Positions 37,246-56,911 of a stretch of DNA of 57,111 nucleotides are shown piece by piece; the stretch's first letter is position 1, and each line of letters starts with the position of its first letter. This DNA comes from an uncultured Bacteroidales bacterium (GTDB lineage: Bacteria; Bacteroidota; Bacteroidia; Bacteroidales; UBA10428). A program made the translations under genes and the position numbers. The notes under the pieces were generated by a model, which had not been told where the DNA came from, made no database searches, and saw nothing but the letters and a program-made list of their open reading frames with translations. The DNA is taken from positions 1 through 57,111 of the forward strand of contig CAZMVE010000006.1 of assembly GCA_964569585.1 (NCBI GenBank), read 5' to 3'.

Positions 37246-37403
37246 TCTATCGAAGGTATTAATAATTGAGAATTAATCATCTTAATTATTTAACATGCTA
37301 TTTGATGAATATGGCAGAATATACCCTAAAATTCAACAGAATAATAACCAGGTAAAAATGATGATTATTTACTTTCATGACATATTTTAATATTGTATCA
37401 TAA

Positions 37404-39311: not shown

Positions 39312-39379
39312 ATCATTATTCCAGATAAGGAAGGACTCTGTTAAATCCAAATAGACTTTAAAATATCACCAGAGAGTTA

Positions 39380-40183
39380 TTATTTCTTTTTATGGTATAA
39401 AAAATCTCCAATTCTCCGCATCCGTGCCAGCTCATCTTCATTCATGGGCCCAAGTTCAAGTAATTTAAGATTTTCATGCATTTGTTCGATGGTTTTAGAA
39501 CCTGTCAAACACAGATCAACAGCCGGGTTTGAAAGTACAAACCGGTAGCAATCGGATGCAGTAGGGGTGGTCTCTCCTTCAGGCATTCTTTTCTGATCGA
39601 GGAGCTGCCCCCAGCTTGTGGCCGTGTAGGCTACAATACCTGTTCGTTTAGCAGTCTGCAGATGAGGGAATACATCGGTTTCAGCTCCCCGGTGAACAGC
39701 ATTGTAGCGTATATGAAATACATCGAAAATATTTCTTTTATCGAGTTCAGGAAACAATTTCCGGTTATGTCCGGTCATACCAATAAATCGTATAAGACCC
39801 TTTTCTTTTAATTTCATGGCACTATCCAGAACTGATTTAGCAGGGTTCCAGCTATAATAGCCAAGCAACATAATATCGATATAATCAACTCCGAGTTGTT
39901 TCAGACTTCTTTTCATGAAATATTTGTTCATGAAAGCATTATGACCATAACTGTGCATAGCAATTACCAGCTGGTCACGTTTCCCGGCTTTCACAATGTT
40001 TCTGATAGCCTCGCGCATTTGTGACGAGCGGCCCTTAATAAATGTGTTCCACACAAAATAATTACACCCGTGTTCAAAGGCTTCTTCAAATGCTTTTGCA
40101 GGCGCTCCATAACTCGAGGCAATGCCGAGACGCCCGACCTGAAGGTTAGTTTTACCCATTAATCGTTTTTCCGAAAATTTCAT
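39380..40183 (-). CDS. Aldo/keto reductase family oxidoreductase
   Basis: A 267-aa protein with LGVDYIDIMLLGYYS and IGMTGHN segments typical of AKR proteins. Confidence 0.8.
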   Translation of the reverse strand: MKFSEKRLMGKTNLQVGRLGIASSYGAPAKAFEEAFEHGCNYFVWNTFIKGRSSQMREAIRNIVKAGKRDQLVIAMHSYGHNAFMNKYFMKRSLKQLGVDYIDIMLLGYYSWNPAKSVLDSAMKLKEKGLIRFIGMTGHNRKLFPELDKRNIFDVFHIRYNAVHRGAETDVFPHLQTAKRTGIVAYTATSWGQLLDQKRMPEGETTPTASDCYRFVLSNPAVDLCLTGSKTIEQMHENLKLLELGPMNEDELARMRRIGDFLYHKKK

Positions 40184-40342
40184 AAGGGTATTATTTGGAA
40201 GTTGGTACTAGTAAGTTAATTTTTACGTTTAAAGATAGGAAGATTATAAAAGGGGTAGTTTTATTGGATAGAGTATTTTTGTTAGGATTTGTAAATTATT
40301 CTGAAGTTTATGACATTTACCGGCAAATCATCAGATACTATC

Positions 40343-40546
40343 ATGAAGAAGTTTTTGTTATTCCGATATGGGTTTATTTTCCTGTTTCTTTTAAATATAG
40401 TTATGTTATCAGGGTGTGAGGCGAAAATAGACTGTACGGGTTGTGATAAAGAAGCCCCCTGGTCAAATATTGAATCGGACTACTGTTATCCTACGAAAGC
40501 TCAATGCGAAGCCACAGAAGGAAAAGAATGTGAGAAGTGTAATTAA
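40343..40546 (+). CDS. Small Cys-rich putative lipoprotein (67 aa)
   Basis: MKKFLLFRYGFIFLFLLNIVMLSGC lipobox, followed by a 43-aa mature part containing 6 further Cys (CTGCDKE...CYPTKAQCEATEGKECEKCN). Confidence 0.4.
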   Translation: MKKFLLFRYGFIFLFLLNIVMLSGCEAKIDCTGCDKEAPWSNIESDYCYPTKAQCEATEGKECEKCN

Positions 40547-40619
40547 TTCGAAAGTATTTCCAGGTTATATTTTCGCTTAACTGTAGACATGGTTTTATAT
40601 TAAAAATTTCAGACACCAA

Positions 40620-41204
40620 CTAAATCGTTTTTCCTTCCTCGTATTCCCGTAAAGGTTTTTGTTCCACCCGTATCAGGTTTTGAATGGTATAGCCCCTTTC
40701 TCTCGCTTGTTCAACCAGCTTTGTATAAATTTCTTCCGGCATGTAGGGTCGCCGGCATAAAATCCAGAGGTAGTTGGATGAGGAGCTGCCTACCAATGCA
40801 TATTCATAGTTAACCGTATCCAATTCAAGCACTAAGTAATCGGCATAAAAGAATAGAAAAAAAGATACTTTCAGATGTCCGACACCGGTTGTATCGGCAA
40901 TTTTAGCTTTACCTACTATGGTCTTGTACTTTCCTTTGAACGACTCTTTATAACCGGCATTTTCTACTTTGATCTTACCGTCGCTCCGGAGCGAGTATCT
41001 TGCGGTAACACCAATAAGACCTTTTTCAAAGGAATGTGGAAAACGGGCTATTTCATACCATGTACCCAGGTACCGGTTTAATTCGAAATTTGTAACAGGT
41101 TTATTATCAATCAACTTTTTATCGGCATTATTGGCGTTAATACACGAAATAAAACTAATCAGAACACTTATTATGAATGTTTTCATTAATTTTTTACTCA
41201 TCAT
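40620..41204 (-). CDS. blc: Bacterial lipocalin (Blc-like outer-membrane lipoprotein)
   Basis: Lipobox (LISFISC) and lipocalin signature LNRYLGTWYEIARFPHSFEKG...YLWILCR. Confidence 0.85.
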   Translation of the reverse strand: MMSKKLMKTFIISVLISFISCINANNADKKLIDNKPVTNFELNRYLGTWYEIARFPHSFEKGLIGVTARYSLRSDGKIKVENAGYKESFKGKYKTIVGKAKIADTTGVGHLKVSFFLFFYADYLVLELDTVNYEYALVGSSSSNYLWILCRRPYMPEEIYTKLVEQARERGYTIQNLIRVEQKPLREYEEGKTI

Positions 41205-41491
41205 TTGGGTTAAGTTATGATAAATTTATCATTCACTGTACTCCTTCGTTGTAAATGATTTTTAAAATTATCTTTTCCGTATGACGGAAGCTGATTTCTC
41301 TGAAGTTGAACTTGTATCTTACTTATGATAAGCAAAAGGAGGGATGCTTCCAAAGGCTTGGTACTGAATCTGGATAGGTGTACTACGATAACAGAAGAGA
41401 GAAAAAAAATAATGTAACGAGTTGGCAGGGATTGAAAATCAGGCTGCCGGAGCTGCCTATAGGTGAGAACAACTAATTACCGGTATCTCAA

Positions 41492-41938
41492 TCAGTCGTT
41501 TTTTCCCAGAAAAAGTTGAGTATCATTCATCCAGAGGGAAGGTTTCATCATCCAACTTTCGATGGCATATTCTTCCGAATCGTCAATCAGGATATCTTCC
41601 CAGAAAGTACTATGAACATCATACATCCATTTTTCGAGACTCATTTCGTTTTCCTGCCAGAAAAAATTATCCGGATTCAACATCCAGTTCTCAATTTCCA
41701 TTTCATTTTCCGATGCTTCTAAAAGATATGAAGCATTGTAATAAAGTGCATCTGATTTGCCTGCATTTTCGGCTTCCTGAATATGCATCTCTTTTTTCCG
41801 GACTGCTTTTCCCGAATCGGAACAGATTTCATCATCTCCTTCCGAAGCCATTACAAAGGGCTGGATAAAAAGAAAGACAAGTCCTGTTACTAAGACCAGT
41901 CCGATTTTTTTGCCTGGGGTTAAACTTTTATTGCACAT
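41492..41938 (-). CDS. Hypothetical secreted/membrane-anchored acidic protein with repeated E-x-W-M motifs
   Basis: N-terminal hydrophobic segment, then IENWMLNPDNFFWQENEMSLEKWMYDVHSTFWED...AIESWMMKPSLWMND (three [ES]-x-WM units). Confidence 0.45.
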   Translation of the reverse strand: MCNKSLTPGKKIGLVLVTGLVFLFIQPFVMASEGDDEICSDSGKAVRKKEMHIQEAENAGKSDALYYNASYLLEASENEMEIENWMLNPDNFFWQENEMSLEKWMYDVHSTFWEDILIDDSEEYAIESWMMKPSLWMNDTQLFLGKND

Positions 41939-42147
41939 GGTTTATAGTTATTAATGAGTTGTCCCAAATAATTCATTAAGTATGCCAAATATTCCAACTT
42001 ACATCATATCAGAATTTTATATGTAAAAATAAGAAAGGAGAGAGTGGCAACAATTGATCGGTAATCTGACAATCGGTGTACGTATCCGTACATCAAGTTT
42101 CAAAAAAGCGAAGAACTTTATTTATGATTGATAGATATAAAACAACA

Positions 42148-42182
42148 AACCCGCACTTTTCTGCAAGGATAAAAGGCGGGTT
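42148..42182 (-). terminator. Probable rho-independent terminator of the xylanase gene
   Basis: On the minus strand, AACCCGCC...(inner CTTTT/AAAAG pairing)...GCGGGTT is followed by TGTTGTTTT. It lies 22 nt after the stop. Confidence 0.5.
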
Positions 42183-42203
42183 CGGAATATGAGTAAGGAA
42201 TTG

Positions 42204-44039
42204 TTATTCTTTAATTACCACTTTTTTAGCAACAATCGATCTTTTTTTATACACCATTAATTGATAGGAACCTGGAATAAGCTCAGAGGTACGTAATGAA
42301 TAATAGTTAGTATTCCCGGTTTCAATTTGTAAGATTTCCTTTCCGCTCATATCAATCAGTACTATCCGGTCGAAACTACCCGATGGGTTGGCTTCGATAA
42401 GCAGTTCGTTATTAAAAGGATTGGGGTAAAGCTGTATTGCAGATGATGCCTCCTGGTGTTCAACACCGGAAGGATCCATCATGTTGGGTACGGTTTCAGG
42501 TCCAAATATTTCAAGCACCCCTCCATTAGTAGAAGTCAGAGTACCGGATGTATAGCACAGGCTGTAGTAAATGCCATATTGAAGGTTCGATGCCAGGTTC
42601 AATTCAACGATGCCTGGATCAGTACCTGAATTGGCCGAATTTATGGTTATGGGATCAGCAGCATACAACAGGAAATCGGATACACTTGGGGAGGGATCGT
42701 TCATGGGCTTATCGAAATGCAGGTACACCACATTTCCTTCCGGGTTATGATCGATTCCTGTAAGCCTGGGGCGCTCCGGTACAGCATCGGCCAGGTTTAG
42801 GGCTATTTCCGTTTCGTTGTTAATTGTCAGGCACGATGCGGGGATCAACAGGTACTCACCACCTGTTTTTACACCGATTTCATAATCGCCAAAGAATCCA
42901 TGAAACGAAATGGTACCGTCGGCGGCTAGCTTATCCCTGATGCTTGTCGACCATTTTTCATGTATCAGGAGGTATACCGTATCGGCAGCAATTTTGGGTA
43001 TCCTGTTTTCATCATAAATGCCGGAGCCGTCCCTCCAGGTAGGATCCTTGAATCCCCACCATATCAATCCTTCTACAGCCGGGTGCGAGAAGCAGACACG
43101 CATCATCAGGCCATACGAGTTAGCCATACTCTGATCGCCGATGTTTTGTTCATCGATCTTCATATCGAACTCAGTTACTTTTATGGGTAAGCCGAGTGTT
43201 GCTACCTGGTCGAGTTTGGTTTTGATATCCGACCAGCTAAGGGTGCCTTCCATATGCCCCTGCACGCCAATGCCATCGATAGGAGCACCCTCGTCGAGCA
43301 TTTCCTGGATGGTGTTAATATAATTAGGAGCCGAACCCCAGACAATAATATTGAATTCATTGACAAACAAGCGGGCATCGGGATCTTCTTCGTGTGCCCA
43401 CTTAAAAGCATTCCATTTTATCGAATCGCCTGCATTCTCGTAGAGCCAGGTTTCATGAATGGGTTCGTTTATTACATCATAATCCTTAATAATACCCCCG
43501 TACCGGCTTACTTCCCTTCGTACACGCGTTTCGCAGGCATTATACAGGGGTTCGCCTGTCATGCTCAGGGTCCATCCCGGCATCTGCCAGTTTGCATCAC
43601 CTCCCCAGATGAGGGTATGCGCCCGTACATCCCAACCGACCCGACTGGCCCAGGCATAGATAGTATCGACCTGGGTATAGAATAGATTACCCTCTGTGGC
43701 TTCCATGTAGGGCCATTTAAATCGTTCCACTACGCCATAGTTGTAATATTTCTGCAGCACAGCCTGCCTCCATCGCGATTGGACAGAATTACCGATGGGT
43801 TCTACAGTATTTCCCCATTGAAATTCGTGTTTTTTCAGGCGGATATAAACGGAGTCGGTAAGGGGGTTATCCAACTCATCGGTGATCCGCAGTGTAAAAT
43901 CACCTTTGCGGAGCGTGTCGATACGCGCTTCAGCCGTCTCGTACCAGATTTGAGCCTGAGTATCGAACCGGCAAACAAAGCAGAGGCTTATCAGAAGTAT
44001 ACCGGTTTTCATCGACAGGGCGAAGTATTGTTTTTTCAT
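42204..44039 (-). CDS. GH10 endo-1,4-beta-xylanase with C-terminal extra domains and a T9SS sorting domain
   Basis: GH10 motifs are RAHTLIWG, DYDVINEPIHE (acid/base Glu) and PIKVTEFDMK (nucleophile Glu). The C terminus (LYPNPFNNELLIEA...YQLMVYKKRSIVAKKVVIK) is CTD-like. Confidence 0.85.
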   Translation of the reverse strand: MKKQYFALSMKTGILLISLCFVCRFDTQAQIWYETAEARIDTLRKGDFTLRITDELDNPLTDSVYIRLKKHEFQWGNTVEPIGNSVQSRWRQAVLQKYYNYGVVERFKWPYMEATEGNLFYTQVDTIYAWASRVGWDVRAHTLIWGGDANWQMPGWTLSMTGEPLYNACETRVRREVSRYGGIIKDYDVINEPIHETWLYENAGDSIKWNAFKWAHEEDPDARLFVNEFNIIVWGSAPNYINTIQEMLDEGAPIDGIGVQGHMEGTLSWSDIKTKLDQVATLGLPIKVTEFDMKIDEQNIGDQSMANSYGLMMRVCFSHPAVEGLIWWGFKDPTWRDGSGIYDENRIPKIAADTVYLLIHEKWSTSIRDKLAADGTISFHGFFGDYEIGVKTGGEYLLIPASCLTINNETEIALNLADAVPERPRLTGIDHNPEGNVVYLHFDKPMNDPSPSVSDFLLYAADPITINSANSGTDPGIVELNLASNLQYGIYYSLCYTSGTLTSTNGGVLEIFGPETVPNMMDPSGVEHQEASSAIQLYPNPFNNELLIEANPSGSFDRIVLIDMSGKEILQIETGNTNYYSLRTSELIPGSYQLMVYKKRSIVAKKVVIKE

Positions 44040-44202
44040 GGTTGTAACATTTTACTAATAAATGAGAGTTGAAATTATAAAAGAACCGTAAAAAATGTTG
44101 GATTTGTATCAGTCAGGTTCGTCAAATTTACTGAATAAAGTGCGTTTTACCATTCTTTATATTCATAACATTCCTGCGTGGGGGTGTGGATTGAAACTTC
44201 TG

Positions 44203-44756
44203 AAATATTCAATTCTCAGCGACTTAAATAATTTCATAACGTCATGGCATGTGTAGCTCCTTCTCCGTAGTAAAACTACGAAGGAGAAGCGAAGCAATCT
44301 TGTTGGTTTTTGCCCTCATGCTGGGCAGGTAGGTTAGCAATTCATTTGCGAATTTTATTCGTTATAGTCATGTTCATTTCTTTTCCTTGATGAAAAGAAA
44401 CGAACCAAAGAAAAACCGAACGAAGTGAGTTCACGAATACCATTGAAAATAATAAATAGTATGAGTAATCAAGGCCCGGGCTTCTCAGCGATCCACCATC
44501 GGTTTGCTGTCTATCCCGATCAAGAATTTGTTGGATTTTGAATAACAAAACCTTACAAATTCTAAATCGGGATCATTTGCCCTTCGGGCACGAACAGCTT
44601 CACCGGGTGGATACCCTCGCCTCCGAAGCCAATGGCCGGTTATAATATTCCGCATCAAATGCGGAATCCAGTGAAATAGGATGTACTTTTTCGGACGAGG
44701 AACCAGATTGCGGCGACACTTTTTGGTAATGTACCGGAAGGAGTTTGGATTGAAAC
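44203..44756. repeat. Composite noncoding repeat, copy A (modules X1 44203-44330, W1 44326-44388, Y1 44467-44573, Z1 44574-44756)
   Basis: Positions 44467-44756 differ from 48856-49142 at only about a dozen positions. X1 shares both ends with 48692-48820. W1 recurs at 46551-46609. Y contains a 61-nt hairpin at 44513-44573. Confidence 0.85.
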
Positions 44757-44838
44757 GTTCTTTATATGAAAACTTCATCTGGCGTTTTCTAGCCCAAAGT
44801 TAAAAGAGGCTTTTGTAGGGTATGCATTATATTGTGGC

Positions 44839-46299
44839 CTATGGACTGAATTTCTTTAAACGGTATATTCTGACAGAACCCTTTTCAGCGATTAATTCAT
44901 CGAGTAAGCTAATGATCTCTTCATTGCCATCAAGTTTCCGGGAATCGCTATATAAATATTCCGCACCCTTTTCAATCATCGTTCTGAGTTTTTGTGCGTC
45001 CAGGTTGTCATTGTAATAACTCCAGCCTTTCTTATCGATGTAATAGAAAAATATATGATGCGAGCGGTCGTTCCCGGCTACTACCAGTGAGTTTTTCGGA
45101 ACAGCGTCCCGGAGTTCTGTTTTATAAAGCAGTAAATCTTTATTGAATCCGGGGGAATCCGGATTCCATCGTACCTGCATTCTTAAATAACAGGTAACAG
45201 GTAAAAGCAGCAAAAGAGCAAAGGTTAAATACCGGGTGAAGGGAATATTTAAACTTAGAAGATTATAAGCTCCGTAAGCTACCAGAATAAAAAGTAAAGG
45301 ATAAAAGGGGAACAGGTAATAATCGTGAATTTTTGCAATGGCATTCACCTCAAAAAGATAATAGGCCAACACTACCATGCTCCAGGCAAGAATCAAGGGG
45401 AACTTTGAATTTTTATAGGCTTTTCTTTGAAACAGAAAATATAATCCTGCCAGGAAGAATAATACGGAACCATAATTTAATAGTAATTCAGGCAATGTTG
45501 AAATCAGGTTGTGTTGAAGATAATCAAGGACAGTTAATAAAGACTCATGAGCAGCCAGAATTCCTTTTATTGTTACATTGCCATGCCACTGGAGTACTAC
45601 GGTTCCATACCAAACTATGGGCAAAATTGAAAAACTAAATATTCCAGTTGCCTGGGAAACAACTTTTTTGTTTATTCCATTTTTAAAAGAAAATATTATA
45701 AAATATACAATAGGCACGATGTAGTAAATGATAAAAGGGAGCTTACATAATGCCCCGATACTCAATAATAATCCGCTGCCCAATAAGGATTTCACTCTGC
45801 CATTACTGCGCCATTTGAAGAATAAAACAATACCCCAAATGGAACAACACAAAGCCAGATTATCGGGAATTGGATTTATTGTATAATAATAGAAAGCCGG
45901 TGAAAAATTAAAGGCCCATGCACCAATAAGCGATAATACTTCATTATGAAATAATGTAGCTAATAGTTTATAGATACCTAAGACTGAAATCAATCCGATA
46001 ATAAACATTAACATGCGGCATAGTATCAGGTGGTTTCCGAAAATCTTATAAGTACAGGCTACCAGCCATTGCATCAGGGGAAATTCCAATCTCATTATTC
46101 CATCCGTGTCACCCCTGTCATTTCGGCGAGGATTGAAAATATTCATATCCTCTTCATAAAAATTTATGATGTTCGATTGAGTCTGAGTTTGTCGCCAAAC
46201 ATGAATACTCATTAAATCCTGTGAGAAATGTTCAAAATGCATTAAAAAGCTAATCACAGCAATTGAAACCAAAATACTGTTTCGGAGAATCTTCTTCAT
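44839..46299 (-). CDS. GT39/GT83-like (ArnT/PMT-type) polytopic membrane glycosyltransferase
   Basis: A 486-aa protein with about 11 hydrophobic helices. The N-terminal loop motif HVWRQTQT...FPLMQW resembles ArnT/PMT-family enzymes, and there is a soluble C-terminal tail. Confidence 0.6.
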   Translation of the reverse strand: MKKILRNSILVSIAVISFLMHFEHFSQDLMSIHVWRQTQTQSNIINFYEEDMNIFNPRRNDRGDTDGIMRLEFPLMQWLVACTYKIFGNHLILCRMLMFIIGLISVLGIYKLLATLFHNEVLSLIGAWAFNFSPAFYYYTINPIPDNLALCCSIWGIVLFFKWRSNGRVKSLLGSGLLLSIGALCKLPFIIYYIVPIVYFIIFSFKNGINKKVVSQATGIFSFSILPIVWYGTVVLQWHGNVTIKGILAAHESLLTVLDYLQHNLISTLPELLLNYGSVLFFLAGLYFLFQRKAYKNSKFPLILAWSMVVLAYYLFEVNAIAKIHDYYLFPFYPLLFILVAYGAYNLLSLNIPFTRYLTFALLLLLPVTCYLRMQVRWNPDSPGFNKDLLLYKTELRDAVPKNSLVVAGNDRSHHIFFYYIDKKGWSYYNDNLDAQKLRTMIEKGAEYLYSDSRKLDGNEEIISLLDELIAEKGSVRIYRLKKFSP

Positions 46300-46550
46300 T
46301 TATTTTTTCATTTTATACATCCTGATGTTCTAAAAATTTTATCTGTAACTGGTATAAATATATGTAACAAACTTACGTACATTTTCTTTCTGACAGCTAT
46401 ATTTCCAAATTACCACTTGTTTTTTGGAACTAGTTTTCTTATTTAACGTGAGTTCGAAATAAGACTATCTTGTTAAAGCCTTATTATCAATTATCTCCAA
46501 GTTGATAGATGGTTTTTTTGGAAGAAAAGAATAAGCTATTAATTCAGCTA

Positions 46551-46609
46551 GCAGGTTAACAATTCATTTGCGAATTTTATTCGTAGAGATCATGTTCCTT
46601 TCTTTTCCT
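46551..46609. repeat. Module W2, a short copy of part of the composite repeat
   Basis: gcaggttaacaattcatttgcgaattttattcgtagagatcatgttcctttcttttcct closely matches 44326-44388. Confidence 0.7.
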
Positions 46610-46663
46610 ATTTAATATAATATTTTCTTGTTCTTAATTAAGTGCCTATTCTATAATTACCTC

Positions 46664-48388
46664 CTATTTTAAATAAACAACAAATATTTTTTTGTTGAAT
46701 GCGAATCCATTTTCAACTAAACAATTCGTGTCTGATAGTACAATTCCTTGTAGTCTTAAATTTGCATAAGCATATGCTAGCATTTCTGAGGGCCATTCAC
46801 CATTCACAGTATGCATATATATTTCAGGTTTAATTGCCTGTGATAAACAATTTGGACGTAAAGATTTAACTATCAATAAAGCAACATCGTTATCTGCACC
46901 ACCATGAATATAAATATGAATTTCTTTGATTTGAGGTTCTTGAGTTTTATTTATGGTATTAGTTTTCAGCTCCTTTTTGTTCTTAATAATTTCTAAGGCA
47001 TTTTCAGCGCGCCAGGATAAAAGTTTATTTTCATCCTTGAGGACAGATTGAAGATGTTCAATTATACTTGAGTCATCAAATACAGAAAGTGCTTTCGCAG
47101 CATATGAACTTATTGTCAGCTCAATTTTTGGCCAATCTGATTCCGAAAGTAAAGTGGCGAGCCAATTAACCAAGTCTTCATCTTCAATAGATTCTGCTTG
47201 AACCATAAATGCTTTTTTTATTAATGACATTGCTTGTTCTTCACTACATTCATAGTGGGATTTCATATTATCTATCCCTTTTTGATCGACTACTACTTTA
47301 CCATGAACTAAATATTCTGCCAATTCACGTGAAATATTTAATATACTTTCATTATCCTGTAAAGCAGAAATAAGTACACCAATAGCACCCGGGTTTTTAA
47401 TTTCGCCAAGAAATTCGGTAGCATTCTTCCTTCTATAAACAGATTTATCATGTTGCAGGATTGATTTTAGAGATCCAACAGCCATATCGCCTAATTTTAA
47501 CATTTCATCCCTGGCCTGTTTCTCGGATCTATTATCATCCATCTTTTTAATTAACTTTTTTACTTTTGTGTCATAATTAATTTTAATTTTTTTGTCTTGG
47601 TTTAAATAGTCTTTTTCAGTGGATTGTCCTTCATACTCTGAGGTACCGAATGCTAAAATCGGAAAGAAAATAAAACTCAGAAATATTAATCCAACTGTAA
47701 ATCCCTCATTTTTCCCAAAACTTTTTGAAAGTAAATTGATGGACCAAACAATCCAAATGATCTGTAAATAGGGAATTAACATCAGGAACAACCACCACCA
47801 GGGTTTTTTTACAATTTCCAAGAAAACAATTATGTTATATACCGGTATAATGCAAGCCCATCCTGGTTGTCCAGCCTTTTGAAAGATGCGCCACATGGAG
47901 ATTATCAGGAGTATCAGTATAATATAGATCAATATCGGAGACGAAGATTCTTCAGATTCCGGTTTGTTGAGTTCAGCAATTAATTCATTGGTTATACCGG
48001 TTTGTTTAATTTCTTCTATTGTCCCCTGTTTATTTTCAGCGGGGAAAATGATTTTTAAATAATAGGCTGTTTCCTGTTCAATATTAAATGTATCGGAGAC
48101 GTATGTAGATTCATCTTCTCCGAATTGTGCCGAAATCACCAGACTTTCCTGTGAATACACTTTTTGATGAAATTTATCGGATGTGGAAACCGGCTGATTG
48201 AAAACAATAGAATCATTACTTGTTACTTTGATCTTAGGACATAATTCTGCTTTTTTAAAGCATACGTTATGATTTCTGATTGTAAAATTAATGATTGAAA
48301 AACTTGTATCCGATTGTGCTTTTGCATAGAAAAAGCCAGAAAGAATAATGGATATAAGGAAAACTTTTTTTGCGAATACCTTTTTCAT
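46664..48388 (-). CDS. Membrane protein with a DUF5684-like TM core and cytoplasmic HEAT/PBS-lyase-like repeats
   Basis: Signal-like start MKKVFAKKVFLISIILSGFFYAKA (the listed start 48433 is probably too early). The TM block WRIFQKAGQPGWACIIPVYNIIVFLEIVKKPWWWLFLMLIPY is the DUF5684 signature as I remember it. HEAT-like segment: EFLGEIKNPGAIGVLISALQDNES. Confidence 0.55.
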   Translation of the reverse strand: MKKVFAKKVFLISIILSGFFYAKAQSDTSFSIINFTIRNHNVCFKKAELCPKIKVTSNDSIVFNQPVSTSDKFHQKVYSQESLVISAQFGEDESTYVSDTFNIEQETAYYLKIIFPAENKQGTIEEIKQTGITNELIAELNKPESEESSSPILIYIILILLIISMWRIFQKAGQPGWACIIPVYNIIVFLEIVKKPWWWLFLMLIPYLQIIWIVWSINLLSKSFGKNEGFTVGLIFLSFIFFPILAFGTSEYEGQSTEKDYLNQDKKIKINYDTKVKKLIKKMDDNRSEKQARDEMLKLGDMAVGSLKSILQHDKSVYRRKNATEFLGEIKNPGAIGVLISALQDNESILNISRELAEYLVHGKVVVDQKGIDNMKSHYECSEEQAMSLIKKAFMVQAESIEDEDLVNWLATLLSESDWPKIELTISSYAAKALSVFDDSSIIEHLQSVLKDENKLLSWRAENALEIIKNKKELKTNTINKTQEPQIKEIHIYIHGGADNDVALLIVKSLRPNCLSQAIKPEIYMHTVNGEWPSEMLAYAYANLRLQGIVLSDTNCLVENGFAFNKKIFVVYLK

Positions 48389-48549
48389 ATTGATAATTTT
48401 AAAACAAGAAACGAAAAATACTGCATAAAACAAATTCGTGAAATTTTAAGTTACCCCGATTCAGATCAACGGTATATTTTGAATAGCTTGCTTTGCAATC
48501 TGGCTTCAACAACTATTATGTAACGCTAACGCGGCACTTAGACAAATTT

Positions 48550-49142
48550 CATTTGCCCTTCGGGCACGAACAGCTGCACCGGGTGGGTCCCCGCTTCCGA
48601 AGCCAATGGCCGATTATAACATTCCGCATTAATTGCGGAATCCAGTTAAATAGGATGTACTTTTTCGGACGAGGAACCGGATTGCGGCGACAAATATTCA
48701 ATTCTCAACGACTCGAATATATTTAAAACGTCATTGCGAGCACAGCGAAGCAACCGAGAACGAAGTACGAGTTCGGCGAAGCCAATCTTGTTGGTTTATG
48801 CCCTCATGCCGGGCGGGCACTTCCTTTTCTCCTTAATGAGAAAAGGAAGCAAAAGAATCAAGGCCTGGGCTTCTCAGCGATTCACCAGCGGTTTGCTGTC
48901 TATCCCGATCAAGAATTTGTTGGATTTTGAATAACAAAACCTTACAAATTCTAAATCGGGATCATTTGCCCTTCGGGCACGAACAGCTTCACCGGGTGGA
49001 TACCCTCGCCTCCGAAGCCAATGGCCGGTTATAATATTCCGCATCAAATGCGGAATCCAGTGAAATAGGATGTACTTTTTCGGACGAGGAGCCGGATTAC
49101 GGGGACACTTTTTGGTGATGTGCCCTAAGGAGTTTGGATTGA
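48550..49142. repeat. Composite noncoding repeat, copy B (modules Z2 48550-48692, X2 48692-48820, Y2 48856-48962, Z3 48963-49142)
   Basis: The same module set as copy A, with an extra diverged Z copy at the left. Z2 differs from Z3 by scattered substitutions and a 2-nt indel. Y2 hairpin at 48902-48962. Confidence 0.85.
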
Positions 49143-49160
49143 TTTAAATCCTTTGGGGCT

Positions 49161-49412
49161 TGTTCTTACTACTCTTCCTGCTGCTCTGTCAGGTTCAACT
49201 GCTGTTCTGTCAGGTTCAGGCTTTGTTTTGTGTGCGTAAGGTCCTGTTTTATGACTTTCATGCCCTGTTCTGTGATGTTGATAGGATGTTCTGACTAATT
49301 CACATGCTGTTTTGAGCAGGGAAGGCTTTGTTCTATGGTTGTCGACTCCTGTTTTCAGGTGTTCGTTCCTTGTTTTGACAGGGTAAGGTTGTGTTTTGAG
49401 GTGTTCACATGG
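49161..49412. repeat. Array of 12 tandem direct repeats with an exact 21-bp period
   Basis: TGTTYT (TGCTCT in unit 2) begins at 49161, 49182, 49203, ... 49392, always 21 nt apart. The remaining ~15 nt of each unit are diverged. Confidence 0.9.
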
Positions 49413-49433
49413 AGGGTTGGGATATTTATATAA

Positions 49434-49466
49434 AACCCTGACAGGGTTCTGTACCCTGTCAGGGTT
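49434..49466. repeat. REP-like hairpin (14-bp stem, 5-nt loop)
   Basis: AACCCTGACAGGGT (49434-49447) pairs with ACCCTGTCAGGGTT (49453-49466). It is a sibling of the palindrome at 55135-55167 and lies 16 nt downstream of the stop of the minus-strand ORF 49482-50168. Confidence 0.8.
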
Positions 49467-49481
49467 AACAAGTGATCAAAA

Positions 49482-50168
49482 TCACTGTACGGTTTCCACG
49501 GTTTTATTTTTCAGGGTTTTGCCCTTGCCATAATCGGTAATGTTGCGCCACGATTTGTAGCGGTTGATGAATTCCTGATCTTCGACAAGGCCCTTTACCA
49601 GGTCGTCCATGATATCGAGGCTGTTACGCAGGTTTTTTATTTTTTCGACGATTTCTGATCCCTTCTCCGATTTGTCTTTCGATACGGTAGTGCGCTCGGA
49701 GGCCTGCTTCCTGTAGTCGGTAATTAGCTGACGGATATTATCTATATCGGCGTTCGTTACCTTGAATGATGCCAGGTTTTCAAGATTTTCAACAGCTTTA
49801 TCGGCAATACCGGCACAACGGTTTACGGATTCCGGTTCGGGCCCGCGTGAGAGTGCCGAGTAGGAAATACCTACCAGGGGGAGCAGGGTAAGCCGGTTGT
49901 TCTTCTTGGCCCAGGCGCTCATTTTTTTCATCAGTTTGTAAGTGGTGTTCATCAGCTGGTCATAGGTGTTGTCCTTTAAATCGGTTAATCCGCCGGGGTC
50001 CGTGGCCGATACCGATTCGTTCAGACTGTTCACCTGGTTATACTCCGTATCGAGCAGGGAGTATGTCGATGCAATTTCGGGCTCATTTTCCCAGAGGGAA
50101 CGTTCGTTGTTCATGCCGTTGAGTACTACGCCCAACATGTTCAGAAAATTAAATTGTGTTTGTCTCAT
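49482..50168 (-). CDS. Hypothetical protein (228 aa, predicted mostly alpha-helical)
   Basis: Clean ORF with coding-like composition. No family recognised. It is followed by the small hairpin AGTGATTTTGATCACT, which contains its TGA stop and a second in-frame TGA. Confidence 0.55.
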   Translation of the reverse strand: MRQTQFNFLNMLGVVLNGMNNERSLWENEPEIASTYSLLDTEYNQVNSLNESVSATDPGGLTDLKDNTYDQLMNTTYKLMKKMSAWAKKNNRLTLLPLVGISYSALSRGPEPESVNRCAGIADKAVENLENLASFKVTNADIDNIRQLITDYRKQASERTTVSKDKSEKGSEIVEKIKNLRNSLDIMDDLVKGLVEDQEFINRYKSWRNITDYGKGKTLKNKTVETVQ

Positions 50169-50633
50169 AATAATGTAAGGTTTTAAATTAATAAATATAA
50201 CAGTTAATGAAAACTCTATTGAAACCCTTACAGGAACCGGCTTATTTCAAATATAACTTCTTCTCTTACCTATGAGGCTGCCCCGTGAGGCAGCCTGTTT
50301 CGCAATTGCCTTTACCTGAATTGTTATTTACAACGTGAATATAAAAAAAATAGTATAAAAATAAAATATGTATGGGCCGTTGAGTGAAATTAATTTTGGA
50401 TTTTGTGATAGGGGTGAAAATTAAATCATTGTTTTCAAGATTATTACTGAAGAAAAGAATACGTATTTTAGGCCGGAACGGGCAAATTTTGTAAATTTCT
50501 GGGGAGTTAGGGGAGAGGAAAAATTAAAAGCCCCCGTATTGTAAGACGAGGGTGGCTTACATGTTTTCACAACGGAATAATTTTTATTTATTGAAACAAC
50601 TATGTATCACGATAGAATTAATTGAGTAATAAG

Positions 50634-50715
50634 AAAAAATCCCACGGAGTACGCGGGATTTAGAATTTCTTCGGCTTATAGCCTTGTTGTGAATTGTCTT
50701 TCGAATACGAAGATA
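50634..50715 (-). ncRNA. Predicted tracrRNA, divergent from cas9
   Basis: The minus strand reads CUUCGUAUUCGAAAGACAAUUCACAAC|AAGGCUAUAAGCCGAAGAAAUUCUAAAUCCCGCGUACUCCGUGGGAUUUUUU. The anti-repeat pairs with repeat nt 1-11 perfectly and with nt 12-16 after a 1-nt bulge. An AAGGCU..AGCC nexus-like hairpin follows, then a 9-bp terminator hairpin plus a U-run. The 5' end is not defined. Confidence 0.7.
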
Positions 50716-50730
50716 TAAAAAAATAATGAA

Positions 50731-53700
50731 ATGGAAAAAACGCTTGGTATTGATCTAGGAACAAACTCTATAGGTCTGGCTCTTAAAAAGGGAAATGAAT
50801 TCGAATGGTTTGGGGTATATACTTTTAAGAAAGGTGTTGGACAAGATAAATCTGGTGAGTTTTCTTTTGCTGCTGATAGGACAAAGCACAGATCATCCAG
50901 AAGATTATACAATGCCAGACGATATAGAAAATGGGAAACTTTAAAGGTGTTAATTGAAAATAATTATTGTCCACTTGATTTGAAAAATTTAAGTAAATGG
51001 AAACATTACATAAGAGGCATTGGAAGAAAGTATCCGATTGAAAATAATTCGTTCCAAAAATGGATAAAACTGGATTTTAATGGAGATGGCAAGCCTGATT
51101 ATTCTAGTCCTTATCAACTCAGAAGGGAGCTAATAGAAAAAGAATTAGACTTAGGAAATAAAGAAAACCGATATAAAATTGGCAGAGTGTTTTATCATAT
51201 TGCTCAAAGAAGAGGTTTTAAAAGTAGCAGAAAGCTCGGAGCCAATGAAAAAACAGCCGTATACAAAGGTAGTAGTGAAACAAATACGATCGGGCGGAAT
51301 GAATATGAAAGCTTACTTATTGAATGCGGTTCTTTAGGAGCAGCATTGGCAAGACTGGAAGAGGAAGGGATAAGAATTCGTAATAGATACACATTACGAA
51401 AAGATTATAAGAATGAAATAGATCAAATTATTTCAAAACAAAAAATTTCTGATGAATCCTTCTCAGAGCGGCTCATAAAAGCAATATTCTATCAAAGACC
51501 ATTAAGATCCCAAAAAGGTTTGGTTGGTAAATGTACATTAGAACCTAGAAAGCATAGATGTCCAATTAGCCATCCAAAATTTGAATTATATAGAGCTTGG
51601 TCTTTCATAAATAATATTAAGTTTAGGAACACAGATAACGGTGATTGCCAACAGTTACCTTTAGATATTAGAAATGGTATTTTTGAAAACGTCTTTATGC
51701 GTTTAAAATCAAGCTTTCCTTTTGAAGATATTAGAAAGTATATTGAAAAGAAAGGTGATAAAAACTGGGAATTAAATTATAAGAAAAAGGCTGATAAGGT
51801 AAGTGTTTCAGGTTGTCCGGTTTCTGCAAGATTTAGAGCTGTTTTTGGAGAAAATTGGCTAATATTTAAGAAAGAAATAGCCAGAACAAACAAAAAAGGA
51901 GAACCAGTAAACAAAACTTATGATATTGAGGGTATTTGGCATATACTGTTTTCTTCAGAAGACGAAGAGTTTATTGAAGAATTTTTATTGTCTGTTCTAA
52001 ACCTAGAGGAAGAAAATGTAAAGGGCTTAATGACATTATGGAACCATTTTCCGGTTGGGTATGCCAATTTAAGTTTAAAAGCCATCAATAATATCCTCCC
52101 TTTTTTACAAGAGGGCATTATTTATGTCGAATCCGTTTTTTTAGCTAAAATTCCTGAGATAATAGGGGATAAAACATTTAATCAAAATAAAGAATTAATC
52201 CTGTCAACACTGCAAACTGAAATTGAACAAAACAGATTAGAAAAAGCAGTAGTTGATATTACTAATAATCTTATTTCGAAATATTATTTACTTGACTATA
52301 ACGAAAGGTTTGGATGGAAAAATACTGATTACAAGTTGGATCGAAACGATAAAAATGACATAATACAATGTTGCATTGAGCATTATGGTGAAAAAAGATG
52401 GAATAATTTTATGGATGTTGTACTAAAAAATACAATTCTTGCAGGTGTAGAATCAAAATACCAGACTTTTTTTGAAGATCATAAAAGAGAACATATAAAA
52501 CAACCGCAATTATTAGATCAAATTCAGCAATGGATAATGGCTAATTTTAATGAAGTGACAGAAAAACAATTATCCAAATTATATCATCCTTCAAAAATTG
52601 ATATTTATCCTAGTATAGAGGGTCAAACATATTTAAAAAGTCCTAAGACGGGAGCCTTTAAAAATCCAATGGCCTATAAGACTTTACATATTTTAAGACG
52701 AGTAATTAATCATTTAATTGAAACTGGGAAAATTGATCAAGAAACCAGGATAGTAGTAGAAGTCTCGCGTGAAATGAACGACGCTAATAAAAGATGGGCA
52801 ATTGAAACATACCAAAGAAAAAGAGAAAATGAAAACAAGGAATTTGCTATTGCAATAGCAGGATTAGTTCAAGACCAGGATTTTAGGGGAGAAGCTGATC
52901 CCAGCAGTGAGAAAGACATGGAAAAGTTTAGATTGTGGTTTGATCAATTAGACGATAGCAGTACGATTTTAAAAGAGATTAATGCAACTAAATCAGACAT
53001 TGATAAATACCGGCTTTGGAAAGAACAGGGATGTAAATGTATGTATACAGGCAAAACCATAAACTTAACAGATTTATTTGATACAAATAAAATTGATTTT
53101 GAGCATACAATTCCTAGGAGTAAGTCATTTGATAGTTCAATGGAGAACATGACTGTCTGCTATGCGGACTATAACAGAAATGTTAAAAGAAATAAAATAC
53201 CTACTGAGTTACCGAACTATTTAGTTGACACACCGGAAGGTAATGCTATTGAACCTAGGTTAGAAGTATGGAGAAAAAAGGTTGATGAATTAAAAAAACA
53301 AGTTGAAGATTGCAAGTTTCGATCTAAAATAGCTATTGATAAAAAACAAAAAGATGAAGCCATAAAACAAAAGCACCTTAGGACATTTGACTTCGATTAT
53401 TGGAGAAATAAGCTGGACCGATTTACAAGAGAAGACATCCCAAGCGGATTTAAGAGAAGTCAATTAGTGGATACACAAATTATTACAAAGTATGCGTTTC
53501 ATTATTTAAAGACCGTTTTTCAAAAAGTAGATATCCAAAAAGGATTAGTGACTGCCGAATTTAGAAAGATTTATGAGATTCAACCCAAGGAGATTAAGAA
53601 GAATAGAACAAGGCACCATCATCATGCAATAGATGCGGCTGTTTTAACTTTAATTCCACCTGCTTTACAACGACAAGAAATTTTAAAGAAAGCCTATGAA

Positions 53701-54807
53701 TACAATGAAGCAACCGGTGAACAATATCATGAAAAGCCCTTCAATAGTTTTAACTCAAATTCTATTAAGGATATTGAAAAAACAATTCTGATAAATGATA
53801 TGCCTAATAAGGATCAAGCATTTTCTCCTGGAAAAAAATTGGTAAGAAAAAGGGGGCGAGTGGTCTGGACTAAGGATTCAAATGGACAAGTTGCGAGGGA
53901 CACAAGTGGTAAAAAAATTCCAAAAATAGCTCAAGGAGATTCTATTAGAGGGCAGTTGCATTTAGATACATTTTATGGCAAAATTGAATCATTAGAAAAA
54001 AAAGGTGAGTTTTGGATGGTTGGCCGAAAAATGGTTGAGGATATAAATTTGAAATCTGATGCAATTATTGATAAGACTTTGGCTGAACATATTAAAAAGC
54101 AAGTAGATGAAGGAGTTTCTCTTTCATTACTTGTCGACTTAAATGGCAATAGACTTAGACATGTTAGATGCAGAGTTAAAGCAGGTAGGGGATTCTTGGC
54201 AACTGAGAGCGTAACAGTGATAAAAGAACAAACTTATAAATCAAAGCATGAATACAAGAATTACTACTATACAAATTCTGGCGACAATTATGCATTTGGC
54301 TTATATGTAGGCGCTAATCAAAGAAAAATTGTTCCGGTCAATTTATTTGATGCTTCAAAAATTAATAATTACAAACATGTTGATGATTCTAAAGAATTAT
54401 TCGAGCCATTAATTTTCATAGGAAATGGGAAGAATAAAGTAGAAGCAAAGCTGTATCATGTTTTTCAACCTGGACAAAAGGTTCTGTTCTATAATGAAAA
54501 TAAAGATGAGCTTAAAGATTTGGGTACTGAAGAATTGTCTAAACGACTTTATTATGTTAGAACATTAGCAGATGCCAAACAAGGATTAATTCAATTTCAG
54601 CATCATTTAGAAGCAAGAAATGATGAACAATTAAACAACGATTTTCCCAAGGATCAATTTGGTGCTAAAGGCAAAAATGGATTTTCTATTTTTTCGTTAG
54701 AGTTTGTTGCTCCTAGATTATTATTAAGTGCTGGAAACTTCAATTTTATTATAGAAAATAAGGATTTTGAATTTACAATGTATGGTAGTATTCTGTTTAA
54801 ATACTAA
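50731..54807 (+). CDS. cas9: Type II-C CRISPR-associated endonuclease Cas9 (1358 aa)
   Basis: RuvC-I MEKTLGIDLGTNSIGLA, RuvC-II RIVVEVSREMN, HNH KIDFEHTIPRSKSFDSSMENMTVCYADYNRNVKRNKIP, RuvC-III RHHHHAIDAAVL. Arg-rich bridge-helix-like segment RTKHRSSRRLYNARRYRKW. Confidence 0.95.
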   Translation: MEKTLGIDLGTNSIGLALKKGNEFEWFGVYTFKKGVGQDKSGEFSFAADRTKHRSSRRLYNARRYRKWETLKVLIENNYCPLDLKNLSKWKHYIRGIGRKYPIENNSFQKWIKLDFNGDGKPDYSSPYQLRRELIEKELDLGNKENRYKIGRVFYHIAQRRGFKSSRKLGANEKTAVYKGSSETNTIGRNEYESLLIECGSLGAALARLEEEGIRIRNRYTLRKDYKNEIDQIISKQKISDESFSERLIKAIFYQRPLRSQKGLVGKCTLEPRKHRCPISHPKFELYRAWSFINNIKFRNTDNGDCQQLPLDIRNGIFENVFMRLKSSFPFEDIRKYIEKKGDKNWELNYKKKADKVSVSGCPVSARFRAVFGENWLIFKKEIARTNKKGEPVNKTYDIEGIWHILFSSEDEEFIEEFLLSVLNLEEENVKGLMTLWNHFPVGYANLSLKAINNILPFLQEGIIYVESVFLAKIPEIIGDKTFNQNKELILSTLQTEIEQNRLEKAVVDITNNLISKYYLLDYNERFGWKNTDYKLDRNDKNDIIQCCIEHYGEKRWNNFMDVVLKNTILAGVESKYQTFFEDHKREHIKQPQLLDQIQQWIMANFNEVTEKQLSKLYHPSKIDIYPSIEGQTYLKSPKTGAFKNPMAYKTLHILRRVINHLIETGKIDQETRIVVEVSREMNDANKRWAIETYQRKRENENKEFAIAIAGLVQDQDFRGEADPSSEKDMEKFRLWFDQLDDSSTILKEINATKSDIDKYRLWKEQGCKCMYTGKTINLTDLFDTNKIDFEHTIPRSKSFDSSMENMTVCYADYNRNVKRNKIPTELPNYLVDTPEGNAIEPRLEVWRKKVDELKKQVEDCKFRSKIAIDKKQKDEAIKQKHLRTFDFDYWRNKLDRFTREDIPSGFKRSQLVDTQIITKYAFHYLKTVFQKVDIQKGLVTAEFRKIYEIQPKEIKKNRTRHHHHAIDAAVLTLIPPALQRQEILKKAYEYNEATGEQYHEKPFNSFNSNSIKDIEKTILINDMPNKDQAFSPGKKLVRKRGRVVWTKDSNGQVARDTSGKKIPKIAQGDSIRGQLHLDTFYGKIESLEKKGEFWMVGRKMVEDINLKSDAIIDKTLAEHIKKQVDEGVSLSLLVDLNGNRLRHVRCRVKAGRGFLATESVTVIKEQTYKSKHEYKNYYYTNSGDNYAFGLYVGANQRKIVPVNLFDASKINNYKHVDDSKELFEPLIFIGNGKNKVEAKLYHVFQPGQKVLFYNENKDELKDLGTEELSKRLYYVRTLADAKQGLIQFQHHLEARNDEQLNNDFPKDQFGAKGKNGFSIFSLEFVAPRLLLSAGNFNFIIENKDFEFTMYGSILFKY

Positions 54808-54910
54808 AGTTTATTTATACCCACTTGTTGACCCGTCAGCTTCCAAAGGATATGGCAGCGTCTTAACGAAATTGAAGCTCCAGATTTCATGTAATAATTA
54901 AAACCGTAAT

Positions 54911-55534
54911 ATGCAAAAAATAGAACCTCTGCAACACGGCCAGTACTACCACATTTATAATTGCGGGATAAACGGGGAACAGTTGTTTCGCGAAACAACA
55001 AACTACGAACATTTTCTGCGGTTATATGAAAAATATATCGACCCTGTTGCCAAAACCTTTGCCTGGTGCCTGATGGGGAATCATTTTCATTTTTTGGTGA
55101 GAATCAGGGAAGAGAAGGAGATTGATGCAAAATTAAACCTGACAGGTTTTCAAAACCTGTCAGGTTTGGGAGCAACAAAACCGCTCCATCAGTACTTTTC
55201 AAACTTATTTAATGCATATACAAAAGCATTTAATAAATGGTATTCGCGTCATGGTAGCTTATTTGAACGACCCTTCAAACGGAAGCGAATCGATAACGAA
55301 TCCTATTTAAAACAAGTTGTAATTTATATTCATAACAACCCGGTACATCATGGTTTTTGCAACCACGCGATCGAATATCCATGGAGTTCATACTTAACCT
55401 GTATTTCTTTAAAAACTACAAAAATAAAACGCCCCGATGTACTGGACTGGTTTGGCGGTAAAAAACGGTTTGAAACGGACCATAAGGAAGCCGGAGCCGG
55501 AATTAACGAAGTTGAAGCCATTCTGGAATTATAA
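54911..55534 (+). CDS. IS200/IS605-type Y1 (HUH) transposase-like protein, RAYT-like (REP-associated tyrosine transposase family)
   Basis: HUH motif CLMGNHFHFLVRI and catalytic-Tyr context VVIYIHNNPVHHG. Size is 207 aa. It has a palindrome-encoded insert LNLTGFQNLSGL between the two motifs. No companion tnpB and no obvious IS ends were seen. Confidence 0.8.
   Translation: MQKIEPLQHGQYYHIYNCGINGEQLFRETTNYEHFLRLYEKYIDPVAKTFAWCLMGNHFHFLVRIREEKEIDAKLNLTGFQNLSGLGATKPLHQYFSNLFNAYTKAFNKWYSRHGSLFERPFKRKRIDNESYLKQVVIYIHNNPVHHGFCNHAIEYPWSSYLTCISLKTTKIKRPDVLDWFGGKKRFETDHKEAGAGINEVEAILEL
55135..55167. repeat. Perfect 33-nt palindrome (15-bp stem, 3-nt loop) inside the Y1 transposase-like CDS
   Basis: AAACCTGACAGGTTT-TCA-AAACCTGTCAGGTTT. 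It is translated in frame as LNLTGFQNLSGL. Confidence 0.9.
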
Positions 55535-55619
55535 TCGATGAATAATGCAGGAGCGGATCGCAATATAACTATGTAAAAATTCATGTATTTATTGTAATCT
55601 ATTTAAAAAATAAGTTGCT

Positions 55620-56519: not shown

Positions 56520-56551
56520 TGAAAATTTTTTGAAAGGGGTATGGATAATAG

Positions 56552-56911
<360 letters not shown>

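Follow-up and report, generated by a model that had tools for sequence, protein, structure and literature searches.

At least two organisms carry short, non-coding hairpin modules that recur at unrelated sites and vary in their order, orientation and nesting. In one of these organisms, an uncultured Bacteroidales bacterium of the lineage UBA10428, they occupy three intergenic regions at 44203-49142 of a 57,111-nt stretch of DNA (assembly GCA_964569585.1, contig CAZMVE010000006.1), referred to below as the window. These regions probably hold a lineage-restricted family of modular hairpin repeats of the same kind as the repetitive extragenic palindromes (REPs) and bacterial interspersed mosaic elements (BIMEs), the enterobacterial repetitive intergenic consensus (ERIC) sequences, the BOX elements and the foldback MITEs (miniature transposable elements with inverted repeats). 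The modules are a family not described before, which falls within the general kind of REP, BIME, ERIC and MITE sequences and belongs to no named family. It looks like ordinary selfish or relic mobile DNA and not like a system of a new type. Its dominant unit, called the rod, is an imperfect hairpin of 175 nt. Around it stand the X core (a short palindrome with a CGTC tag and a variable loop), the pyrimidine/purine hairpins h1, h2 and h3, a hairpin with an AT-footed stem of 8 bp and the tail CCA, and the units V and W.

Modules in the window and the fold of the rod

The three intergenic regions (IG1 to IG3; 799, 364 and 1048 nt) add up to 2211 nt. With the start codon of the DUF5684 gene placed at the ATG that is called in L026, a contig of an independent Logan assembly (SRR8556479), the total rises to about 2256 nt. 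The original prediction had described about 2.2 kb of non-coding DNA built from the modules X, Y, Z and W, and this inventory was recovered, including the near-identical pair of about 290 nt (YZ1 and YZ3), the Y hairpin, a third and more diverged copy of Z (Z2), the recurrence of W, and an X module with conserved flanks and an exchanged core (Table 1). The two X copies (44203-44329 and 48692-48817) are 73% identical overall, with 84% identity over the 5′ 43 nt, 92% over the 3′ 39 nt and different cores. The E-values of the repeats in the repeat search and with blastn are far beyond chance. Contig L026 confirms 44675-48578 with 100% identity, and its two ends fall within Z1 and Z2, as expected of assemblies at repeats.

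The division of the YZ pair into a module Y and a module Z did not hold. The Y hairpin is the tip of one long hairpin, the rod, which begins 46 nt upstream of Y and also takes in ~70 nt from the start of what had been called Z, while the rest of Z is a separate unit, the Z-tail. Homology to other metagenome contigs (see below) starts at AATCAAGGCC (44467) and stops at AATGGCCG (~44641), and these bounds match the long hairpin predicted from the single sequence. Its arms, 44467-44540 and 44546-44641 (~70 nt each), pair along their whole length. Similarly, the left arm of h1 had been taken for the 3′ part of module W. Z2 is cut at the foot of the Y hairpin on its left and by X2 on its right, and a rod profile matched positions 109-175 only.

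The description of the modules as highly structured is borne out for the rod, whose fold has a z-score of -5 on both strands, and for the W1-h1-V stretch (z = -2.5 / -3.8). The fold of X1 is marginal (z = -1.4 / -2.6), and X2 is no more structured than shuffled sequence (z = -0.2 / +0.6).

RNAalifold predicted 54 base pairs on an alignment of four distinct rod sequences, which represent only three independent lineages and from which the structure itself was derived. In this alignment, standard pairs occupy 99.5% of the cells, compared to 30-46% when partners are slid by 1-3 columns, and variable columns are far rarer at paired (5 of 108) than at unpaired positions (26 of 57; Fisher p = 4e-10). 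A shuffle control for rod pairing (72/500) was not significant with so few sequences. One compensatory pair was counted, G-C to A-U on both sides, and a second change, GCTGT/ACAGC to GCTGG/CCAGC, is a likely further case when a gap in the alignment is shifted. Both strands fold equally well, hence the constraint on the rod does not discriminate between RNA and single-stranded DNA.

Table 1. Repeat modules and neighbouring genes, in positions of the window (L038-L043 are metagenome contigs with rod homologues)
Feature	Position	Strand	Description
YZ1 and YZ3	44467-44753 and 48856-49142		287 nt, 96% identical, 11 mismatches, blastn E ~1e-134
Remnant-like copy GGGGTGTGGATTGAAAC	44181-44197	+	15/17 nt identical to 44740-44756 (final 17 nt of a YZ unit); lies 5 nt upstream of X1; may be left over from an older Z-tail
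X1	44203-44330	+	conserved ends; core ACGTCAT-GGC ... GCAAT-CTTG with a 40-nt hairpin in the 'loop'; small 3′ hairpin TGCCC..GGGCA
W1, 5′ part, AGGTTAGCAATTCATTTGCGAATTTTATTCG...	44331-44371	+	common to W2 only; absent from L038-L043
h1, TTTCTTTTCcttgatGAAAAGAAA	44372-44400	+	pyrimidine/purine hairpin, inverted repeat; homologous in L039, L041, L042, L043
V + spacer, GAACCAAAGAAAAACCGAA ... TGAGTTCACGAAT ... GAGT	44401-44466	+	with the rod, 84% identity over 284 nt in relatives
Rod R1, AATCAAGGCC ... AATGGCCG	44467-44641	+	175-nt imperfect hairpin; 87% identical in L038-L043
Y hairpin	44513-44573		tip of rod R1; 28-nt arms, 82% complementary, 5-nt loop
Side hairpin of rod R1, GCCCTTCGGGC	44579-44589
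Z-tail 1	44642-44756	+	REP-like hairpin, unstructured conserved stretch, h3, end GGAGTTTGGATTGAAAC; not found in L038-L043
REP-like hairpin of the Z-tail, ATTCCGCA-tcaaa-TGCGGAAT + CCA	44647-44670, 48621-48644, 49036-49059
h3	44719-44741		within Z-tail 1
W2	46553-46609	+	88-91% identical to 44331-44387; directly after the stop codon of the minus-strand DUF5684/HEAT gene
Z2	48549-48692	+	fragment: rod 3′ 70 nt and first ~77 nt of the Z-tail; 92% identical to Z1
X2	48692-48820	+	X1-like ends; core ACGTCAT-TGC gagcacagcgaa GCAA + CCGAGAACgaagtacGAGTTCGG ... GCCAAT-CTTG
h2, CTTCCTTTTCTCcttaatgGAGAAAAGGAAG	48820-48849	+	30-nt pyrimidine/purine palindrome, 93% complementary; like h1 in form, partly in sequence
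Rod R3	48856-49030	+	3 differences from R1, all in the 5′ arm
Z-tail 3	49031-49142	+	8 differences from Z-tail 1, all in the last 52 nt
GH10 (glycoside hydrolase family 10) xylanase	42204-44039	-	with type IX secretion system (T9SS) sorting domain
PMT_2 glycosyltransferase	44839-46299	-
DUF5684/HEAT protein	46664-48433	-
228-aa protein	49482-50168	-
cas9	50731-54807		1358 aa; HNH, RuvC_III and Cas9_a domains
REP-associated tyrosine-transposase-like gene	54911-55534		located between cas9 and cas1; weak match to Pfam Y1_Tnp; match to NCBIfam NF047646 at E = 1e-14, short of the cut-off
cas1	55620-56519
cas2-like open reading frame	~56567-56911

Homologues in other metagenomes and a relative without the modules

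A 97-aa open reading frame (ORF) on the minus strand (44485-44778) spans the rod. A phmmer search with this ORF against 1.84 billion protein representatives returned three short unannotated ORFs, which read ...NNPDLEFVKFWTPKSNKFLIGIASKPLVDR where the window ORF reads NDPDLEFVRFCYSKSNKFLIGIDSKPMVDR and which are translations of rod-homologous DNA. The contigs of these ORFs and their cluster mates, six ENA metagenome contigs in total (L038-L043), carry the rod at 86-88% identity, with homology breaking off at the rod ends on one side. The original prediction had held that modules unique to this locus would speak for a local duplication only; the homologues in these other assemblies show that the rod and several accessory modules are not unique to it.

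The neighbourhood of the rod differs between these contigs, in which at least two further arrangements occur. Flanking genes are known for L041 and L042 only; they encode a methyltransferase, an aminotransferase-rhodanese and a 193-aa protein, none of which match genes of the window. L040 and L043 are gene-free contigs in which the flanking sequence is different and has no match to the window. The h1-V-spacer unit stands to the left of the rod in IG1 of the window and in L038, L039, L041 and L042. In L043, it is found 140 nt beyond the opposite end of the rod and is inverted. An h2-type hairpin adjoins the rod instead in IG3 of the window and in L040 and L043. The order X core, h1, V, spacer and rod in L038 parallels that of IG1.

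V of the relatives carries a 17-nt hairpin (TCCCGC..GCGGGA) at the junction of CCGAA and TGAG, which V of the window lacks, and L038 differs from L039 by extra hairpins nested in the loop of h1. Together, h2 and the 3′ end of X match L038, L041 and L042 with 84-86% identity over 51 nt. The X core, ACGTCAT-YGC ... GCRAT-CTKG, recurs in L038 and L041 with different contents within a short outer stem. Hence module order and orientation vary, and some units are nested within the loops of others. Contig L041 also contains, at 1514-3151, a 1.6-kb non-coding and hairpin-packed region between divergent genes, with GC-rich units such as CCTGCCTACCGGCAGGCAGG that are not in the window; the set of modules in the family is wider than what the window alone contains.

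The GH10 gene has a homologue with 83% aa identity in a near relative, whose contigs L036 and L037 are 85-94% identical at the nt level to 28956-43955 of the window. Upstream of GH10, L037 carries an unrelated 400-nt spacer, a different gene and none of the modules. Synteny thus breaks where the modules lie, and the corresponding site of the near relative is without them. Compared to 35519-40272 of the window, L036 (GCA_964592225.1) is without the pectate lyase gene (37404-39311), the aldo-keto reductase gene (39380-40183) and part of the ABC transporter region. The differences in L036 and L037 indicate that the whole 35-50 kb stretch is variable between close relatives.

Within the window, direct 287-nt copies of YZ bracket 44754-48855, a 4.1-kb segment with two low-GC genes (PMT_2 and DUF5684; 31-36% GC, compared to 42-49% in neighbouring genes). 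This segment is possibly an acquired one that could be lost through recombination between the YZ repeats. The 202-nt core of YZ1 and YZ3 (44500-44701) is identical, and all 11 differences fall within the first 33 nt and the last 52 nt, which points to recent gene conversion or to a very recent duplication of the core. Local duplication very likely contributed to the history of YZ1, YZ3 and Z2. However, because the ages of the repeats differ and copies occur in other organisms, it is not the whole story.

Origin of the modules

The nested MITE- or REP-type origin put forward in the original prediction gains support from homologues elsewhere with different flanks, from shuffled and nested modules, and from their absence at the syntenic site of the relative. 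The units would have spread, now or formerly, as non-autonomous mobile DNA, probably via single-stranded hairpin intermediates that favour insertion beside or into other hairpins. Composites would then duplicate locally, and the 287-nt YZ pair and the Z2 fragment may be such local copies, with the YZ pair partly homogenised by gene conversion in its identical 202-nt core. Effects on the host would likely be passive. Stable stem-loops would form in read-through transcripts of co-directional genes, and the repeats would act as recombination substrates, so that the YZ pair could excise the low-GC two-gene segment.

Several observations weigh against the spread of the modules as mobile DNA. All copies of the window fall within 5 kb, and none was found in the other 52 kb by the repeat search, blastn or the rod profile. 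The X flanks, the 5′ part of W and the Z-tail have no known copy outside the window, the latter two being absent from L038-L043. A 20-mer of Z gave 25 matches in 185,579 representative genomes, all chance matches of 20-24 nt; a 21-mer of Z gave no match in the JGI metagenomes, where a 20-mer of the 3′ end of X gave 5 chance matches; three patterns gave no match in IMG/VR; and blastn of 44160-44800 against plasmids and phages gave none either. Since exact k-mer scans yield only chance matches, the family is rare or narrowly distributed. Furthermore, no direct repeat that could be a target-site duplication was found in alignments immediately outside the rod in the window, L041 or L040, and no autonomous element, transposase or parent insertion sequence with matching ends was found in the window or in the fetched loci. 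The flanks of the REP-associated tyrosine transposase (RAYT)-like gene of the window contain none of the X, W, R (rod) and Z modules, and this gene appears to have a cognate hairpin other than the modules. Finally, only three independent rod sequences, from which the structure was derived, stand behind the structural analysis.

Among the 25 matches of the Z 20-mer, 13 came from a GC-rich deltaproteobacterial metagenome-assembled genome (JAYVCF01; loci L001, L004, L007-L009, L012, L015-L018, L021 and L023). They belong to an unrelated GC-rich repeat, mostly found at contig ends, that by chance has 23 nt (TTCGCCCTTCGGGCACGAACAGC) in common with the rod's side hairpin.

The rod, and perhaps other modules, could instead be a functional structured RNA, either a small-RNA gene family or a cis-acting element of untranslated regions, maintained by selection on folding. 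Such a role, which the original prediction had also considered, is unlikely. It would account for the very stable fold, for the conserved stems with at least one compensatory change, and for the same orientation of the rod relative to the known neighbouring genes in YZ1, YZ3 and L041/L042. In addition, YZ1 and YZ3 differ at five positions that are predicted to be paired, and four of these differences result in G-U on the plus strand. However, both strands fold equally well, and the loops and bulges vary freely, while functional RNAs usually keep sequence in these parts. No gathering-level match was found in the window with Rfam 15, and permissive thresholds gave only chance-level matches (E 0.5-1.7) in 44000-49600 and L038-L042, with no family match even at E up to 5. 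The sequences upstream of the two full copies are unrelated and share no promoter-like motif by eye, and a sigma-70 promoter and terminator scan, which does not model Bacteroidota promoters, showed no excess over shuffles. Moreover, the element adjoins unrelated genes, is missing in the close relative and is tolerated as the truncated copy Z2.

A purely local history, in which the repeats are scars of segmental duplication or of the recombination that imported the low-GC PMT_2 and DUF5684 segment, with no dispersed family, is quite unlikely. The confinement of the window copies to 5 kb at a synteny breakpoint next to CRISPR-Cas, the direct 287-nt repeats around a segment of different GC content, the identical 202-nt core, which suggests recent conversion, and the lack of further copies by k-mer in large collections all fit with such a history. 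On the other hand, other metagenomes contain the rod, h1-V, h2 and the X core in different arrangements and with unrelated neighbouring sequence. Copies of very different ages (96%, 92%, 88-91% and 73% identity) would also need several independent local duplications.

A more specific proposal is that the rod and its satellites are substrates of a still-active hairpin-targeting insertion, in which small palindromes enter the loops or feet of others, or that the rod serves an unrecognised recombinase as its RNA or DNA partner, in the way of bridge RNAs for IS110 and omega RNAs for IS605-type enzymes. We regard this as improbable. If true, the accumulation beside CRISPR-Cas would reflect a preferred landing zone and not neutral accumulation.

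It is very improbable that the modules are recombination sites bounding gene cassettes, such as those of integrons or of another site-specific system. Integron attC sites are 57-141 nt long, follow each cassette, carry RYYYAAC / GTTRRRY core sites and have an integrase nearby. The four co-directional genes separated by repeats, the conserved ends and variable centre of X, and the possible pairing of its ends (TCAAC...GTTGG) are reminiscent of this organisation. However, X1 reads CTCAGC, without the AAC of the attC core, and the spacers are heterogeneous (360-1050 nt) and do not provide one site per gene. No integrase or site-specific recombinase was found among the adjoining genes or the other ORFs of the window that were scanned, all beyond 23 kb. 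The same modules lie between divergent genes in L041, and PMT_2 is a conserved gene of an ordinary kind, whose neighbours vary between relatives.

A relation to CRISPR, as orphan repeats or tracrRNA-like RNAs of the adjacent type II-C system or of another one, is scarcely credible. It is suggested by the cas9-cas1-cas2 locus 1.6 kb downstream and by the sequence GGATTGAAAC, present at 44188-44197 and 44747-44756. At the end of the YZ unit, after a hairpin, ...GGATTGAAAC recalls the 3′ ends of type I CRISPR repeats. The spacing of GGATTGAAAC (559 nt) and that of the modules (400-4400 nt) are nevertheless not array-like, and GGATTGAAAC is lost in copy 3 (GGATTGATTT) and absent from L038-L043. 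Furthermore, the repeat of the locus (GTTGTGAATTGC...; GTTGTGAATTGCTTTCA...) and the anti-repeat (~50686) are unrelated to the modules, and a probable tracrRNA is already accounted for upstream of cas9.

That the repeats are fragments of a protein-coding or small-protein gene, as the open frame across the rod and the homologous frames called as genes in other assemblies might suggest, has a negligible probability: the even distribution of substitutions over codon positions (8/7/8) and indels of 2 and 5 nt that break the frame indicate that the rod ORF is not coding, identity is lower for amino acids (58-74%) than for nucleotides (87%), copy 3 has the frame in truncated form, and a word-indexed protein search gave no homologue, no family search having been run on the 97-aa ORF. 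Two other candidates were rejected, namely a 6S-like RNA, because of the lack of an Rfam match and the multiple copies, and a retron or diversity-generating retroelement, because no reverse-transcriptase domain was found among the scanned ORFs.

Genomic setting and known repeat families

Apart from the repeats and the genes next to them, the rest of the window is ordinary chromosome, with a gal operon, a molybdate-type ABC transporter and an S46 peptidase. The window appears to span its entire contig, which T9SS sorting domains, together with homologues named from Bacteroidales or Prolixibacteraceae metagenome-assembled genomes, assign to Bacteroidota. Homologues of PMT_2 (76% aa identity or less) show neither synteny nor modules, and exact matches to the GH10 and 228-aa protein sequences are not on record.

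The type II-C CRISPR-Cas locus extends over 50731-57111. At ~57056-57111, running off the contig end, is an apparent first repeat of the long Bacteroidota type (reverse complement GTTGTGAATTGCTTTCATTCTG...). A probable tracrRNA is predicted on the minus strand at about 50630-50720, just upstream of cas9, where the repeat-like GTTGTGAATTGTCTTTCGAA (50686-50705; anti-repeat extent ~50686-50716) would pair on the minus strand with the crRNA repeat. On the minus strand, AAGGCTATAAGCCGAAG and two terminator-like hairpins (50661-50637 and 50552-50531) follow.

The RAYT-like gene within this locus is located ~6 kb from the repeats. Its motifs NHFH and YIHNNP (translated by eye) match subclass 2.4 of Quentin et al. 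2018, which is characterised by REP insertions inside the gene (PMC6006769). Here, a perfect palindrome of 16+16 nt, AAACCTGACAGGTTTT/AAAACCTGTCAGGTTT (CCTGACAGG...CCTGTCAGG), is found in frame inside the RAYT-like gene at 55135-55167. The CCTGACAGG/CCTGTCAGG hairpin recurs at 49434-49470, just after the stop codon of the 228-aa gene, with a half-site at 33045-33053, and there are five 9-mer matches compared to 0.14 expected. This hairpin is probably the cognate REP of the RAYT-like transposase, and the gene is an unlikely candidate for the mobiliser of the modules. Between YZ3 and the CCTGACAGG hairpin lies a tandem array (49160-49410), in which a degenerate unit with the core CTGTTYTG is directly repeated ~11 times, about every 21 nt; copies 1 and 2 are 95% identical (Tandem Repeats Finder score 75). 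This array looks like iterons, a protein-binding array or decayed tandem REP half-sites (CTGTCAGGTTCA).

The ERIC sequences, also called intergenic repeat units, are enterobacterial imperfect palindromes of 127 nt with longer variants made by internal insertions. The modules resemble them in the long imperfect palindrome that folds as a rod, in their intergenic position between co-directional genes, in size variants made by insertions with the stems kept, in their patchy presence among related strains and in the lack of a known transposase. However, there is no sequence relationship, the host belongs to another phylum, and the rod is here embedded among accessory hairpin modules. The BOX elements of Streptococcus pneumoniae are modular (boxA-boxB(n)-boxC), with a fixed A-B-C grammar and more than 100 copies. 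They share with the present family the assembly of non-coding repeats from discrete modules of variable number and order, the stable predicted folds and the location between genes, but module order and orientation vary here.

Foldback MITEs are similar in their length of 100-300 nt, their lack of coding capacity and their long terminal inverted repeats (rod arms of ~70 nt), as well as in their presence or absence between relatives, the assembly breaks at copies and the nesting. The rod itself has terminal inverted repeats, a small size (175 nt) and no coding capacity. In contrast to MITEs, the target-site duplications that the original prediction had proposed to look for are not evident around the rod, and no candidate parent, an insertion sequence with the same ends, is known.

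REPs and BIMEs resemble the modules as short extragenic palindromes that combine with other conserved motifs in intergenic mosaic arrays. However, the 175-nt rod is far longer than a REP, and REPs are present in more than 100 copies per genome while copy number here appears low, with two full rods and one fragment in the window. REPs of the tagged type carry a tetranucleotide, CGTC or GTAG, at one end of the palindrome. Those with CGTC have an AT-footed stem of 8-9 bp, a loop of 4-5 nt and the tail CCA; they occur in Bacteroidetes, lack a transposase of their own and are sometimes found within longer palindromes (Di Nocera et al. 2013, PMC3733652). Similarly, CGTC stands at the start of the X core, before a stem that begins with AT (ACGTCAT in X1, X2, L038 and L041), and the Z-tail hairpin has an AT-footed stem of 8 bp, a loop of 5 nt and a CCA tail. 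On the other hand, the X stem is 4-6 bp long, with a loop of 10-55 nt and the tail CTKG, and the Z-tail hairpin has no CGTC tag and is preceded by TAAT or TAAC. ACGTCAT is not over-represented in the window (2 found compared to 4.6 expected). Since no unit combines the CGTC tag with the stem features, the modules are likened to CGTC REPs and not assigned to them.

Lastly, REPINs and their RAYTs are comparable in their inverted doublets that form long hairpins (Bertels & Rainey 2011, PMC3116915; Quentin et al. 2018, PMC6006769) and in the presence of a RAYT gene in the same window. The modules differ in that they neither flank the RAYT-like gene nor appear cognate to it, whereas the CCTGACAGG..CCTGTCAGG palindrome does recur.

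The family leaves the understanding of such elements unchanged. To our knowledge, interspersed hairpin repeats have been described extensively in Proteobacteria, in cyanobacteria and in a few Firmicutes, but scarcely in environmental Bacteroidales. The present family is a compact example in which discrete modules, hairpin-in-loop nesting and stems kept while loops drift can be read from few copies. Its effects are practical ones. The repeats break short-read assemblies, as in L026, which ends in two copies, and give rise to spurious small ORF calls in metagenome annotations, which were the route to the homologues. In the genome itself, the YZ pair brackets a two-gene segment that could be deleted through recombination.

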